This document shows positions 3,753-58,585 of a stretch of DNA of 64,000 bases, piece by piece; the stretch's first letter is position 1, and every line of letters begins with the position of its first letter. The notes under the pieces are model-generated. The model ran no database searches. It saw only the letters and a list, made by a program, of their open reading frames with translations, and was not told the DNA's origin. Source of the stretch: an uncultured Prevotella sp. (GTDB lineage: Bacteria > Bacteroidota > Bacteroidia > Bacteroidales > Bacteroidaceae). Location: assembly GCA_944321295.1 (NCBI GenBank), contig CALUKU010000013.1, positions 3,317 to 67,316 on the forward strand. Direction: 5' to 3'. Made by a program: the position numbers and the translations under genes.

Positions 3753-3780
3753 ATAAAGCACCGCCTGGGCGGTGCTTTAT
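3753..3780 (-). terminator. Hairpin terminator directly after the ssrA 3' end
   Basis: ataaagcaccgcc / ggcggtgctttat 13-bp inverted repeat. Confidence 0.75.
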
Positions 3781-3781
3781 G

Positions 3782-4179
3782 TGGAGCTGGAGGGATTCGA
3801 ACCCTCGTCCAAACAGGGAAACCATATGCTTTCTACACGCTTATTCCGGCCTTCGGTTTTCGTGCTGCCGCAAGACCCGGACCACCAACGGCAACCTTAT
3901 CCCCTGAATTTTCACCGTGTGCGCGGGGCCGCGCGCGGCTATTCCCGATTTAACCGCACCGCCTTGTCGGAACGCTTCGGGACGATAGCTTCCGGGCGAT
4001 GTCTCGTCCTGTCACCTTGTGACTGGATTAAGCCAGTAATCTACTATGCTTCGATTAGGCAGCGAGAGCGTATTTGTTTTCGCCAGATAAATTTATGACC
4101 GCTGAGATTTAGGAGCAAACAGACGACGCTCCGCGTGCTTACATACCATTCCAACCCGCTGTCAAATCCGGTCAACCCC
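3782..4179 (-). ncRNA. ssrA: tmRNA
   Basis: 5' GGGGTTGACCGGATTTGACAG, 3' T-arm and acceptor ...GGTTCGAATCCCTCCAGCTCCA; tag ORF 4084-4055 = GENKYALAA*. Confidence 0.97.
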
Positions 4180-34651: not shown

Positions 34652-35062
34652 TTATCCGATAATCGTGGCTATAATCCTGCGCTCCCCGCCGTGGTTCCTG
34701 TATTCGCAGAGATAAATGCCCTGCCATGTGCCGAGGTTCAGACGTCCGTGCGTTATTGGTATGTTGAGGCTTACGCCCGTCAGCGCCGACTTGGCGTGGG
34801 CAGGCATGTCGTCGTCGCCTTCGAGCGTGTGCGTATAATATGGTTGGTTTTCGGGCGCAAGGCGGTTGAATATGCTCTCCATGTCGGTGCGCACGTCAGG
34901 GTCGGCGTTCTCGTTGATGCACAATCCGCAGCTTGTGTGCTTCACGAAGAGGTTGAGCAGGCCCTTCTCGGGCAACGTCGGCAGTTGGCTTACTATCTCT
35001 TCGGTCACCAGATGGAACCCCCTGCGTCTTGCCATGAGCCTTATTTCCTTTTGTTCAATCAT
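34652..35062 (-). CDS. YjbQ / UPF0047 family protein
   Basis: HTSCGLCINENADPDV, HTLEGDDDMPAHAKS, LNLGTWQGIYLCEYR. Confidence 0.92.
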   Translation of the reverse strand: MIEQKEIRLMARRRGFHLVTEEIVSQLPTLPEKGLLNLFVKHTSCGLCINENADPDVRTDMESIFNRLAPENQPYYTHTLEGDDDMPAHAKSALTGVSLNIPITHGRLNLGTWQGIYLCEYRNHGGERRIIATIIG

Positions 35063-35076
35063 GTTGTTTATAATGG

Positions 35077-35164
35077 TTATCTTATGCAAAGATAATGCAA
35101 ACGAGCGGAAAGAAAGCTTGCTTTCAGTTTTCCGAGTGCGCTTATCTTATGCAAAGATAATGCA
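35077..35164 (-). repeat. Promoter-duplicating hairpin unit (23-bp direct repeat containing the -7 box)
   Basis: ttatcttatgcaaagataatgca at 35077-35099 and 35142-35164 around hairpin cggaaagaaagcttgctttcagttttccg. Confidence 0.8.
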
Positions 35165-35288
35165 TATCTTGGCCTTTTTGTGTGCTATTGTTTATTTTTT
35201 GTGTCGCTTTCTTAATTTTTTAATATTCTTATTGTAACGGTTTTGTAACACATAATGCTTAATTTTGCAAAAAAATTCGAGCACGATT

Positions 35289-40794: not shown

Positions 40795-40896
40795 GTTGTC
40801 TTTATATAAGATAAGCTGCGCCTCGGAAATGAAAATAAAACCTCGTTTCACTCGCTTTTATTTTGCTTTTCGCTCGGCTTGCATTATCTTTGCAGT
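40795..40896 (+). repeat. Promoter-associated hairpin unit, longer variant, upstream of the LysM gene
   Basis: taagataagctgcgcctcgg-hairpin-cgctcggcttgcattatctttgca; upstream box degenerate (ttgtctttata). Confidence 0.65.
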
Positions 40897-40918: not shown

Positions 40919-42256
40919 ATGAAGCGATTAGCATTATACGTTCTGCTGCTGCTCGCGCTTGTGACGGTGGACGGCTTCGCCCAGAAGGGGTCGTGGCAGG
41001 ACATACACAAGGTGGAGAGCAAGGAAACAATGTTCGGCATTGCCCGCCGTTACGGCATAACCGTTGACGAGCTGGTGAAGGCCAACCCCGACATGGCCGT
41101 GCCCGGCTACAATCTCCGTGTGGGCGACTATGTGTTCATTCCGTTCCCGGCCTCGCAGGCCGGCGCGGCAGGCTCGGCGCCGAGGGCGGCCAAGCCTGTG
41201 CCCGAGGGGGCGCTAAGGGTTGGGGTGATGTTGCCCCTGCACGATGACGACGGCGACGGCCGCCGCATGATTGAATATTACCGCGGACTGCTGATGGCAT
41301 GCGAGGACCTGAAGAAGGAGGGCGTGTCGATAGCCGTCAACGCGTGGAACGTGCCTATCGACGCCGACATCTACCGCACGCTGGTGAAGGACGGCGCCGA
41401 CAAGTGCGACGTCATCTTCGGCCCGCTATACTCAAAGCAGGTGAAGCCTATGTCGTTCTTCGCCAAGGACAACGGGATAAAGCTCGTCATTCCGTTCTCC
41501 ATCTCGGGCGACGACGTGGACTCTAATCCCAACATCTTCCAGGTGTACCAGTCGCCCGAGGACTTTTACGGCCGCGTGGCCGACCACTTTGCCTACCGTT
41601 TCAAGGACTACCACGTCGTCGTCGTAGACTGCAACGACAAGAAGAGCGACAAGGGTGTGTTCACCTTCCCGCTGAGGAAGAAGCTGGCCGCTAAAGGCGT
41701 GTCGTGCAGCGTCACCAACTTAACTTCCGACGACGGCGTGTTCGGCGGCGCGTTCAGCGCGGTAAAGCCCAACATGGTGGTACTCAACACTTGGCGCTCG
41801 CCCGAGCTGACGGTGGCCCTGCGCAGGCTTGACGAGCTGACCGGGCGCCACCCCGGGCTGAAGGTGTCGCTCTTCGGTTACACCGAGTGGCTGATGTTCG
41901 TCAACCATAACCAGGACAAGTTCTTCAAGTACGACACGTACATCCCCACAAACTTTTACTATAACGTCTACTCGTCGAAGGTGGCCGCCTTCGAGGCGCG
42001 CTACCGTGCCGCCTTCGGCAGCGGGATGATGGACTACCTGCCGCGCTTCGCCCTCACGGGCTACGACCACGGCATGTTCTTCCTGCGCGGGCTGCACCGC
42101 CAGGGCAAGGCCTTCAGCGGCGCCGAGGAGGACAAGAACGCCCTGCAGACGTGGATGCGCTTCGCCCGCAGGAAGGCGGGCGGCGGCTACCGCAACGAGG
42201 CGCTGCAGTTTGTCCACTACAACACCGACAAGTCAATATCGATAATTAACTTCTGA
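40919..42256 (+). CDS. LysM-domain protein with periplasmic-binding-protein-like fold
   Basis: HKVESKETMFGIARRYGITVDELVKANP LysM; VGVMLPL and DVIFGPLY in C-terminal part. Confidence 0.8.
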   Translation: MKRLALYVLLLLALVTVDGFAQKGSWQDIHKVESKETMFGIARRYGITVDELVKANPDMAVPGYNLRVGDYVFIPFPASQAGAAGSAPRAAKPVPEGALRVGVMLPLHDDDGDGRRMIEYYRGLLMACEDLKKEGVSIAVNAWNVPIDADIYRTLVKDGADKCDVIFGPLYSKQVKPMSFFAKDNGIKLVIPFSISGDDVDSNPNIFQVYQSPEDFYGRVADHFAYRFKDYHVVVVDCNDKKSDKGVFTFPLRKKLAAKGVSCSVTNLTSDDGVFGGAFSAVKPNMVVLNTWRSPELTVALRRLDELTGRHPGLKVSLFGYTEWLMFVNHNQDKFFKYDTYIPTNFYYNVYSSKVAAFEARYRAAFGSGMMDYLPRFALTGYDHGMFFLRGLHRQGKAFSGAEEDKNALQTWMRFARRKAGGGYRNEALQFVHYNTDKSISIINF

Positions 42257-43227: not shown

Positions 43228-43300
43228 GTCGGGAGGACGCCCCGCGGACGATGACGGATAATTAACTTAATTTTGCGGAGATGGATTTTGCGGTTCCGCA

Positions 43301-43385
43301 CGTTTGCGTTATCTTTGTATAAGATAAGCTACACTCGGGAAATTGAGAGCAAGCTCTCTTTCCGCTCGTTTGCGTTATCTTTGTA
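43301..43385 (+). repeat. Promoter-duplicating hairpin unit (19-bp direct repeat) upstream of the HU-like gene
   Basis: cgtttgcgttatctttgta at 43301 and 43367 around taagataagctacactcgggaaattgagagcaagctctctttccgct. Confidence 0.8.
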
Positions 43386-43427
43386 AACGGCAACCTTTGC
43401 CGTATGTAAAACTAAATATTTAAGCTT

Positions 43428-43883
43428 ATGTCAGTCAAGTACAGACTTTACAGGAACAACATTTCAAACACCGGCACGCACCGCAAGTGGTACGCCCGTG
43501 CCGTGGTCAGCCGCACGGTGGGCATTGACGAGATAGCCGCCCGCATACAGGACGGCTGTACCGTGAAGCGCTCCGACGTGCTGGCCGTGCTCTGCGAGCT
43601 GTCAGAGGCCGTGCGCGACGAGCTGCTGGCGGGCAACCGTGTCGTCCTGCCCGGCCTCGGCTCGTTTAAGGTGGGGCTGGCCTCGGCGCCCGCCGACACG
43701 CCCGACGAGTGGACGCCCGCCCGCCATCTGCGCGGCGCCCACATAGTGTTCCGCCCCGAAACGGCCGACTCTTACGCCTCGGGCCGCCGCTCGCGCTCGC
43801 CCAAGGCTCTGCGCGGCCTCGAGGTGGAGGAGCTGCCCCGCTACGACAAGGGCGGACGGCCCAAAGACGCGGGCCGGCGCTGA
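43428..43883 (+). CDS. HU-related DNA-binding protein of Bacteroidota type
   Basis: KWYARAV, IDEIAARI...TVKRSDVLAVL, GNRVVLPGLGSFKVGL, IVFRP. Confidence 0.85.
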   Translation: MSVKYRLYRNNISNTGTHRKWYARAVVSRTVGIDEIAARIQDGCTVKRSDVLAVLCELSEAVRDELLAGNRVVLPGLGSFKVGLASAPADTPDEWTPARHLRGAHIVFRPETADSYASGRRSRSPKALRGLEVEELPRYDKGGRPKDAGRR

Positions 43884-50790: not shown

Positions 50791-50972
50791 GATTCGATAT
50801 AAGAAAACAACAAAGTAGGGACATAATTTATTATGTCCGCACGTTCTGTAAAGAACGTTTTTATATGCAAAATCAACTGAATACGCCTCTTCGCGGCGTG
50901 CGGATATAATAAATTATGTCCCTACTTTGTTGTTTGACAATGTTTGAAAGAAAACAAGCCTTATACCGAATT
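50791..50972. repeat. GTAG-type REP doublet (REPIN-like)
   Basis: gtagggacataattttattatgtccgcac (50815-50843) and inverted gtgcggatataataaattatgtccctac (50898-50925), with further outer inverted repeats. Confidence 0.85.
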
Positions 50973-52175: not shown

Positions 52176-52401
52176 GAATTCGGTATAAACTTTTATGCCT
52201 AAAATTCAAGCGAGCACCCTCGCGTAGGGACATAATTTTGAAGATTGCACCATTAAAACGCAATCGTGTCCTTAGCCGCGAAGAGGCGTATTATGCAGTA
52301 ATATTGCCAATAACGTTCTTTGCTTTCAGCGAACTTCGTTTCAGAACGTGCGGACATAATAAATCATGTCCCTACGAAGGGTGTTCTTCTTATACCGAAC
52401 T
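52176..52401. repeat. GTAG-type REP doublet, opposite orientation to the 50.8 kb copy
   Basis: gtagggacataat (52224) ... gtgcggacataataaatcatgtccctac (52348-52375); shared spacer gcacgttctg / aatacgcctcttcgcggc; outer gaattcggtataa / ttataccgaact. Confidence 0.8.
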
Positions 52402-58223: not shown

Positions 58224-58585
58224 ACTCAAATTTAGTATTCTTGTTGAAGCGGTAACGCCGCGCCGCCTTCCAGCGTAAACACCCTCACGCTGAAGCATGT
58301 GTCAAGCCGACCCTTTGCGGCGCGGTTTATTCCTTGCAAAAATACAAATAAATGCTGACATAGACGAAAGATTAAGGAAGATTAATTAAAATAAGGTCTG
58401 TCGGGGTGTAAAGTGCGTGTGAAATAAATGTGATGATGTCATTTGTTCTCAAAATTATTTCTTATTTTTATGTCGGTTCTGCATAAGTAACTCACTCCTT
58501 AACTGAATGAAGTATTAGCAAATGTTCATGCCCGTAGCTTGGACGTTTTTAGAATGTAAGCGCACTCCGGTGCGCAACTTACGAT

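Follow-up and report, generated by a model that had tools for sequence, protein, structure and literature searches.

A palindromic repeat at -7 boxes of gut Prevotella, a putative portable cassette of promoter and leader not described before

Repeat units in a 64-kb stretch of a gut Prevotella genome

The DNA studied here (the window) is a 64,000-nt stretch, C13:3317-67316, of a 2.58-Mb gut Prevotella MAG that comprises 47 contigs with 52.5% G+C (Cn denotes contig n). A first-pass annotation of this DNA had claimed repeat units at three sites, and these are present by direct reading as well as by a direct-repeat search. A covariance model, which we built from 69 distinct units and ran on the window, returned exactly three copies plus a 22-nt ends-only piece at 35150-35171. 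Each copy adjoins an upstream -7 promoter box (TAnnTTTG) and ends in TGCRTTATCTTTGYA shortly before a gene.

Copy 1 is a 65-nt unit of the form TAAGATAAGCGCACTCGG-hairpin-CCGCTCGTTTGCATTATCTTTGCA on the minus strand (35085-35149; covariance model 83 bits, E 1.4e-20), located 22 nt upstream of the ATG of a 136-aa yjbQ/UPF0047 gene (34652-35062, minus strand; Pfam PF01894, E 1.9e-39). The last 15 nt of the unit (35085-35099, minus strand) form the gene-proximal -7 box, while the distal -7 box TGCATTATCTTTGCA (35150-35164, minus strand) is preceded by CAAGATA. After the proximal box follows a truncated unit start, TAAGATAACC (35075-35084, minus strand), and the minus strand as a whole reads TGCATTATCTTTGCA / TAAGATAAGCGCACTCGG AAAACTGAAAGCAAGCTTTCTTTCC GCTCGTTTGCATTATCTTTGCA / TAAGATAACC. 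The truncated start lengthens the direct repeat, which is exact over 23 nt (35077-35099 and 35142-35164) with a period of 65, as originally described. The ends-only piece (AAGATA-TGCA-TTATCTT, minus strand) includes the distal box and reads as a unit reduced to its two ends, with model positions 1-66 matched over just 22 nt (E 0.03). As candidate excision footprints, ends-only units amount to this one clear case and a few AAGGTA..TACCTT look-alikes, which are too few to interpret. Copy 1 is identical in five other strains.

Copy 2 lies on the plus strand (43320-43385; 92 bits, E 4e-23) and is a 66-nt unit with a GAGAGC/GCTCTC hairpin. Its proximal box TGCGTTATCTTTGTA (43371-43385) closes the unit, and 43 nt after the unit comes the ATG of an HU-like HU-HIG gene (43428-43883, plus strand; Pfam PF18291, E 8e-26). 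Upstream (43294-43319, plus strand) are the distal box and, in decayed form, what was the right part of an older unit (TTCCGCACGTTTGCGTTATCTTTGTA). The 19-nt exact core CGTTTGCGTTATCTTTGTA with a period of 66 that had been noted before this gene is found again, and it sits inside a 37-nt repeat of 84% identity (43294-43396).

A longer copy with a decayed first box had been described before a LysM gene, and we find there an 88-nt long-form unit, copy 3 (40807-40894, plus strand; 35 bits, E 5e-7), 25 nt upstream of the ATG of a LysM/Peripla_BP_6 gene (40919-42256, plus strand; Pfam PF01476 and PF13458). The left box TTGTCTTTATA (40796-40806, plus strand) has lost the G of TTTG. The hairpin of copy 3 is formed by GAAAATAAAA/TTTTATTTTG with a loop of 13-15 nt, and the unit holds a full canonical promoter motif, namely TTTG at -33, a 19-nt spacer and TATCTTTG at -7 (within 40880-40894). 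Copy 3 is identical across strains.

The junction between units, TTATCTT-TGCAT-AAGATAA, is indeed a 7-5-7 inverted repeat. A possible remnant proposed at 58556 gave no covariance-model match even at E<=10 and belongs to a different palindrome, GTAAGCGCACTCCGGTGCGCAACTTAC (58556-58585), which stands in a run of ..GGTAAGCT.. / ..GATAAGCT.. words. The window also contains a tmRNA gene (3779-4179, minus strand; Rfam RF00023, 131 bits).

Abundance, fold and placement of the unit

A search of the whole genome, which the first-pass annotation had called for, gave about 64 covariance-model matches, and an nhmmer profile found about 65 units in 44 arrays of one to three units. This is a repeat family far beyond chance. 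The unit consensus reads TAAGATAAGCTGCACTCGGGAAAyTGAAAGCAAGCTTTCTTTCCGCTCGTTTGCATTATCTTTGCA. The unit size given at first has to be extended, as three length classes exist, of 65-68, 76-77 and 87-93 nt (about 66, 77 and 88 nt). They have their ends and the CTCGG / CnCTCG flanks in common and differ in the central hairpin, which is longer in the 77- and 88-nt units. The classes step by 11 nt, approximately one helical turn. Exactly identical 66-mers occur at three unlinked loci (C7:30758, C9:53015 and C14:39317), and arrays mix hairpin subtypes, each of which recurs at other loci.

For 33 of the 44 arrays a co-directional ORF starts within ~130 nt. The downstream genes are unrelated to each other and include yjbQ, the HU-like and LysM genes, AraC, WYL, a PIN toxin pair, an AhpC/TSA-family redoxin and RNase P RNA. 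Two units at C7:68850-68981 lie immediately before the RNase P RNA gene (..GGAGGAAAGTCCGGGC..), and thus the cassette also fronts a housekeeping RNA gene. Altogether, approximately 1 in 10 promoter-type boxes in the genome is occupied by the cassette. The genome has one convergent pair of arrays. It encloses, at C7:30851-31461, an antitoxin-like ORF of 60 aa together with a PIN-domain toxin, and among the loci compared between strains the array upstream of this toxin-antitoxin pair is the most variable.

The unit had been described as a small hairpin. The hairpin itself is upheld, but its confinement to the interior is not, as the whole unit is one long imperfect hairpin in which the ends pair too. 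The fold consists of an outer stem (AAGATAAGC/GC-TTATCTT), two conserved internal loops and an inner stem of variable sequence. Terminal inverted repeats are thus present, with AAGATAAGC pairing with GC(A)TTATCTT, and these pairs covary (AAGCTAA/TTAGCTT, AAGGTAA/TTACCTT, AAGTTAA/TTAACTT, AAGACAA/TTGTCTT and AAGATAG/CTATCTT). Array C18:6166 shows that covarying partners are found within one unit, at a distance of 60 nt, and not across the junction palindrome. The column pairs with the highest mutual information (0-based 26-37, 27-36, 22-39, 7-55, 29-34, 19-42, 13-49, 25-38 and 30-33) are all nested exactly as predicted, and they include pair 13-49, which is located in the 'loop'. We examined the pairing of the named structure on 69 distinct 66-mers from the Prevotella genome and others. 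In this test 95.7% of cells were paired, changes on both sides were seen in 12 of 23 pairs (143 cells), and the observed score was reached by 0 of 500 shuffles. This is contrasted by just 40-54% pairing in a control in which the partner was slid by 1-3 columns.

For copies 2 and 3, minimum-free-energy folding reproduces the long hairpin whether the sequence is treated as DNA or as RNA. Stability is slightly higher on the antisense strand, with z values of -2.5 to -3.6 compared with -1.1 to -2.3 for the sense strand. On the gene-sense strand the non-Watson-Crick cells are A.C in 49 cases and G.T in 10, counts that are not phylogenetically independent, and each A.C cell on the sense strand equals a G.T wobble on the antisense strand. 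As far as base composition at the mismatches can tell, this hints at a requirement for folding on the antisense strand, and speaks against selection on a sense RNA hairpin.

To characterize the boxes next to the units we took 879 gene-proximal TAnnTTTG boxes without units as background, and as left edges a set of 158 array edges from the Prevotella genome and 109 loci of other genomes. The consensus of unit-free boxes in the genome is TAnnTTTG-CA, with CA in 46% and TATC in 15%. TAnnTTTGnn directly adjoins 118 of the 158 left edges, and the units are dispersed; at the level of DNA, the earlier proposal of a miniature element that integrates at promoters and regenerates them is thereby largely borne out. 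TATC accounts for 61% of the array left boxes, compared with 15% of the background, followed by TACC (14%) and TAAC (6%), whereas boxes with T as their fourth letter (TATT) are rare at left edges (5 of 158) and TAAT plus TATT make up 26% of the background. Thirty-three left boxes have their own TTTG 18-21 nt upstream, and left boxes keep a locus-specific nn and upstream sequence. The left-edge box counts indicate that the left box is native, and the sequence favoured as a target is similar to the end of the unit itself over ~7-10 nt.

At its other side every unit ends in TATCTTTG. The 88-nt units have a canonical promoter layout (TTTTATTTTG, 19-nt spacer, TATCTTTG), and this hairpin-plus-promoter layout is common to many unit-free promoters, tRNA promoters included. 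The 66-nt units carry T-tracts only at -33 and no canonical TTTG at 19-21 nt, and judged by these motifs their box may be a weak promoter. All eight long-unit loci examined in the genome have TTTA(N)A in their upstream boxes and keep TTTG in the gene-proximal box only. Array-terminal boxes are followed by an TAAGATAA-like 8-mer in 23-31% of cases compared with 3-4% of solo boxes. From this enrichment it follows that many arrays either terminate in the cut-off beginning of a further unit or favour sites where part of the right arm is present.

In several places a 66- or 88-nt unit starts exactly where a REPIN doublet has its outer end (..CCGAACTCACGTTTGCA|TAAGATAAGC), among them C7:31609-31760 (C7:31673), C2:157600-157723 (C2:157662) and C6:81150-81270 (C6:81220). 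These units start right after ..ACGTTTGCA, and with such units at REPIN-like doublet ends it appears that sequence alone suffices and that a working promoter is not required. Either the REPIN end is a target through its TTTGCA, or both repeats travel together.

Variation between strains and spread among bacteria

Strains of the same species were recovered by exact matches to the downstream protein. The yjbQ, LysM and AhpC/TSA-family redoxin loci are invariant between them. At the HU locus, alleles have one unit (the window and L004), two (L003, L005) or three (L002, L006). Writing hairpin variants as letters, the alleles of the Bro-N locus are [A'], [A',B], [A,A',B] and [A',B',B], and those of the C7:46677 locus are [B], [C], [C,C], [C,C,B] and [C,B',B]. 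The PIN toxin-antitoxin locus ranges from one to five or more units of different subtypes, among them one internally deleted unit and chimeric units. This in-register variation in unit number fits both gain and loss, in agreement with the recombination between repeated boxes that the first-pass annotation had suggested. Most variation within a locus can be explained by in-register deletion and duplication, without transposition.

The AraC locus has alleles with no full unit (L182, L184), with one (L180, L183 and the source genome), and with another hairpin subtype at the same site (L187). In L187 the left junction reads TTTGCA|T and the right one TTTGCC|G, which is the native sequence of the empty allele L182. 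Empty alleles with a single box were thus found in part, in that L182 and L184 lack a full unit but still carry a 23-nt unit stub; among strains of the source species no completely naive single-box allele was found. There is unit-like sequence on both sides of the AraC site, and ectopic recombination could have filled it.

Comparison of orthologous promoters shows that the unit is not fixed. Among 28 congeneric genomes with a yjbQ orthologue, the source genome only has a unit in the promoter. The yjbQ promoters of the other 27 congeneric species have no unit, and many carry a single tatctttgC box at a similar distance from the gene.

The family as such is not a rare local insertion; it is instead near genus-wide, with units detected by the covariance model in 56 of 61 congeneric species at 1-69 copies. 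Across the taxonomic family, the same model found units in 23 of 35 genera (49 of 101 genomes). An exact-pattern scan with one genome per species found carriers among gut Prevotella MAGs, Leyella lascolaii, Segatella paludivivens, Marseilla massiliensis, Prevotella bivia and some Muribaculaceae MAGs. Cultured carriers with many units are Leyella lascolaii khD1 and Segatella hominis HDD12. Sixteen other families of the order gave no match to a strict 19-mer pattern. A function for the host could also account for the conserved consensus and for the occurrence of units in nearly all species of the genus. Among 2.9 million IMG/VR viral contigs there was no unit match, and in a plasmid collection the sole match was a chromosome-like 317-kb replicon of Segatella hominis, on which the unit is unannotated. 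A phage or plasmid vehicle is rejected on these two results. Metagenome and MAG contigs often start or end inside a unit array (L161, L179, L181, L183, L185-L189, G004:C8:4-69 and G062:C56:3-68). Copy numbers in draft genomes are therefore underestimates, since the repeat breaks short-read assemblies at promoters.

Readings of the unit and known relatives

The junctions constrain how a unit could arrive. Boxes flank every unit as a possible target-site duplication, whose length the junctions do not fix, and left boxes keep their own TAnn. GTA/GTA tails correlate in 13 of 17 cases, mostly in one species. Allele L187 contradicts a simple 4-bp TGCA target duplication, and so do the internal boxes of long units, which are of the TTTA type. 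The junctions fit a single exchange within a shared box, where the left box has the native left part and the right box the native tail; such a native right tail is seen in L187 and in the TATTTTTGCA allele of the source genome at the toxin-antitoxin locus. Template switching with the box used twice as microhomology would fit them as well.

We consider it fairly probable that the unit is a promoter-homing and promoter-regenerating palindromic cassette whose arrays change by box-to-box recombination, with tandem promoters and a leader as predicted products. The cassette family would have a main class of 66 bp together with 77- and 88-bp classes with a longer central hairpin. A unit would begin directly behind the sigma-A -7 box of a native promoter (TAnnTTTG-CA) and end in its own TATCTTTGCA. 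The promoter would be regenerated because the unit's own end box leaves the gene a -7 box at the original distance, and units would stack head to tail because the unit's end is itself a target. Growth, shrinkage and exchange of units within arrays are shown by the strain comparison, and would proceed by recombination or slippage between the repeated boxes. Spread to new promoters is expected to depend on identity with the unit's own box, either through a site-specific or single-strand mechanism acting on the junction TTATCTT-TGCAT-AAGATAA, or through template switching with the box as microhomology. Each insertion would add extra tandem promoters to the host gene. In Flavobacterium the sigma-A box spans -12 to -5 (PMC9723704), and on this basis transcripts from the upstream box are predicted to begin with A1/A2 of the unit, where pairing of the outer stem sets in; they would thus carry a 5'-terminal hairpin leader. 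The number of units may then act as a heritable and fast-changing dial on expression. We see a considerable probability of an undescribed mechanism behind the unit. One such route, which we put forward tentatively and hold to be possible though doubtful, is that the folded strand (probably the antisense strand) or the junction is inserted at -7 boxes by a conserved non-HUH Prevotellaceae protein, perhaps at melted open-complex DNA, in which case each insertion would rebuild the promoter it hits.

A different reading is that the unit does not move and is a host-selected cis-regulatory RNA, that is, a structured 5' leader or small RNA gene acting on mRNA stability or translation. The strong covariation, the coincidence of the predicted start with the first paired base, the consensus kept across 23 genera and the constant orientation towards the downstream gene would all be expected of such an RNA. 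However, the unit is not kept at orthologous promoters, its number varies from 0 to 5 or more between strains with identical downstream proteins, and the genes served are unrelated. Furthermore, the mismatch spectrum favours the antisense strand, Rfam has no match, and no terminator is found behind the hairpin, which makes a discrete sRNA unlikely. Taken together, we regard the RNA reading as unlikely. A protein site has also been considered, in which TTATCTT-N5-AAGATAA over the -7 box serves a global repressor or activator and units multiply it into an operator array. The perfect 7-5-7 inverted repeat does overlap the -7 box at every unit junction, but most array-terminal boxes lack the right arm, and the arms covary (AAGCTAA/TTAGCTT and others), which is the mark of nucleic-acid pairing and not of a fixed protein site. 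Since the covarying partners lie within one unit and not at the junction we reject the operator model, which has next to no probability in our estimation.

Could the arrays be a pure minisatellite, generated by local slippage at promoters, with the likeness between loci due to a shared consensus and gene conversion? In-register copy-number change dominates strain variation, chimeric units show recombination, and unit-free promoters have the TTGCAtTATCTTTGCA-like and -33 hairpin features of long units, all as this reading would have it. Against it, identical 66-mers that include the non-promoter left half and specific hairpin variants occur at unlinked loci, the subtypes mixed in one array recur elsewhere, units adjoin REPIN ends that merely contain TTTGCA, and orthologous promoters of sister species lack units. 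Local slippage as the whole explanation is for these reasons very unlikely. The remaining candidate is a REP/REPIN-like or IS200/IS605-derived (PATE) hairpin, moved as ssDNA by a Y1 HUH transposase (RAYT/TnpA). It would fit a small hairpin with conserved flanks and strand-asymmetric mismatches, several units sit directly beside REPIN ends, and the fixed target of units after ..TTTG(CA) is compatible with a PATE, L187 fitting a break after TTTG. The genome also has one Y1_Tnp gene, of the RAYT type (175 aa, C2:6265-6792). This sole Y1 gene is, however, followed by its own two inverted GTAG hairpins (GTAGGGACATAAT..ATTATGTCCGCAC; GTAGGGACATAATTCATTATGTCCGCAC), which constitute a separate repeat family. 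A GTAG next to the hairpin is absent from the unit consensus (TAAGATAAGCTGCACTCGG...), and units lie at promoters and not behind stop codons. Y1_Tnp (PF01797) is absent from five unit-rich genomes, G112 (28 units), G141 (34), G140 (47), G166 (13) and G093 (13). HUH enzymes are not the driver, since genomes with 13-47 units lack the domain, and this absence and the context of the RAYT gene rule out RAYT. A PATE is further contradicted by the many carriers without TnpA and by the single central hairpin of the unit. Movement by a Y1 transposase is thus extremely improbable. A full-length transposase partner was also sought as a gene enclosed by unit ends, and none was found in the genome.

As the first-pass annotation had left to be checked, no Rfam family or described repeat matched the unit. 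A search of the whole window with Rfam 15 at the gathering score returned tmRNA as the only match and none to the unit, a search of the 3-unit allele at E<=10 returned just a chance mir-1 match elsewhere in the locus, and a literature search found no description of this Prevotella repeat. Small palindromic intergenic repeats are a known kind of element, and the Prevotella unit is a variant of that kind. Correia elements (CREE) of Neisseria are small, gene-less, palindromic and present in many copies between genes; they carry promoter elements at their ends and form hairpins when co-transcribed. They are 100-155 bp long, insert at TA and form no tandem arrays, and to our knowledge no transposase has been identified for them. 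The Prevotella unit resembles them as a small gene-less palindromic intergenic element with promoter elements at its ends, but it is 66-88 bp long, adjoins and duplicates the Bacteroidota -7 box, stacks head to tail and shows compensatory variation along the whole hairpin. BOX elements (boxA-boxB(n)-boxC) of Streptococcus pneumoniae are modular intergenic repeats near gene starts for which stable structures are predicted, and we know of no enzyme that mobilises them. Both families have a variable number of internal units near gene starts; BOX, however, consists of three different modules with no tie to a promoter hexamer, whereas Prevotella has one unit type that recreates the -7 box.

In the attC sites of integrons, which are imperfect palindromes of 57-141 bp, the outer arms and certain unpaired bases are conserved and the centre varies; their structure is kept more than their sequence, and one strand may be the active folded form. 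The Prevotella units share the imperfect palindrome with conserved arms and a variable central part, as well as a structure more conserved than the sequence and possibly one active folded strand, but are found at promoters chromosome-wide. They are contiguous with no ORF between them, and the RYYYAAC/GTTRRRY core of attC is absent from their consensus. REP/BIME/REPIN sequences with RAYT are likewise short structure-conserved hairpin repeats, widespread and old in their lineage, but REPs carry a GTAG tag, lie behind genes and co-occur with RAYT, and in the Prevotella genome such a system exists separately. Within the Bacteroidales, BrickBuilt is an intergenic MITE/minisatellite of Porphyromonas gingivalis that, like the Prevotella arrays, has a tandem repeat core, with small inverted ends, at least 19 copies and promoter-active segments (PMC4596501). 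Its 23-nt repeat is framed by a leader and a tail module, and the element stands at 49-591 nt from genes and is species-specific (PMC4596501); it shows no sequence similarity to the Prevotella unit, no abutment to a -7 box and no full-length hairpin. Putative mobile promoters, near-identical promoter sequences before unrelated genes, have been surveyed as a general phenomenon, and the survey gives no element anatomy, target or arrays (PMC3575422). None of these systems shares the combination of a -7 box that is abutted and recreated, a full-length covarying hairpin, head-to-tail stacking and no identifiable partner gene. Judged by its sequence features, the unit seems to be a portable cassette of promoter and leader that has not been described before.

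Prevotella and Segatella belong to the dominant bacteria of gut and rumen; genetic tools for them are few, and little is known of how their genes are regulated. As about one in ten boxes is occupied and unit number varies between strains, the cassette would be a ready source of heritable strain-level differences in expression, for instance at the toxin-antitoxin pair, at the regulators AraC and WYL, at the HU-like protein and at RNase P RNA. Should a dedicated mechanism be at work, the unit would be the first known case of a mobile element that homes to the Bacteroidota -7 box and restores it, and it would offer a natural, portable part with promoter and leader to those who engineer these bacteria.

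We also note that the REP doublets seen behind the RAYT gene, which have CTTATACCGAACTCACG as their outer inverted repeats, are dispersed over the genome and occur in the window at 50815-50925 and 52224-52375. The RAYT at C2:6265-6792 supplies the otherwise missing transposase of these doublets.
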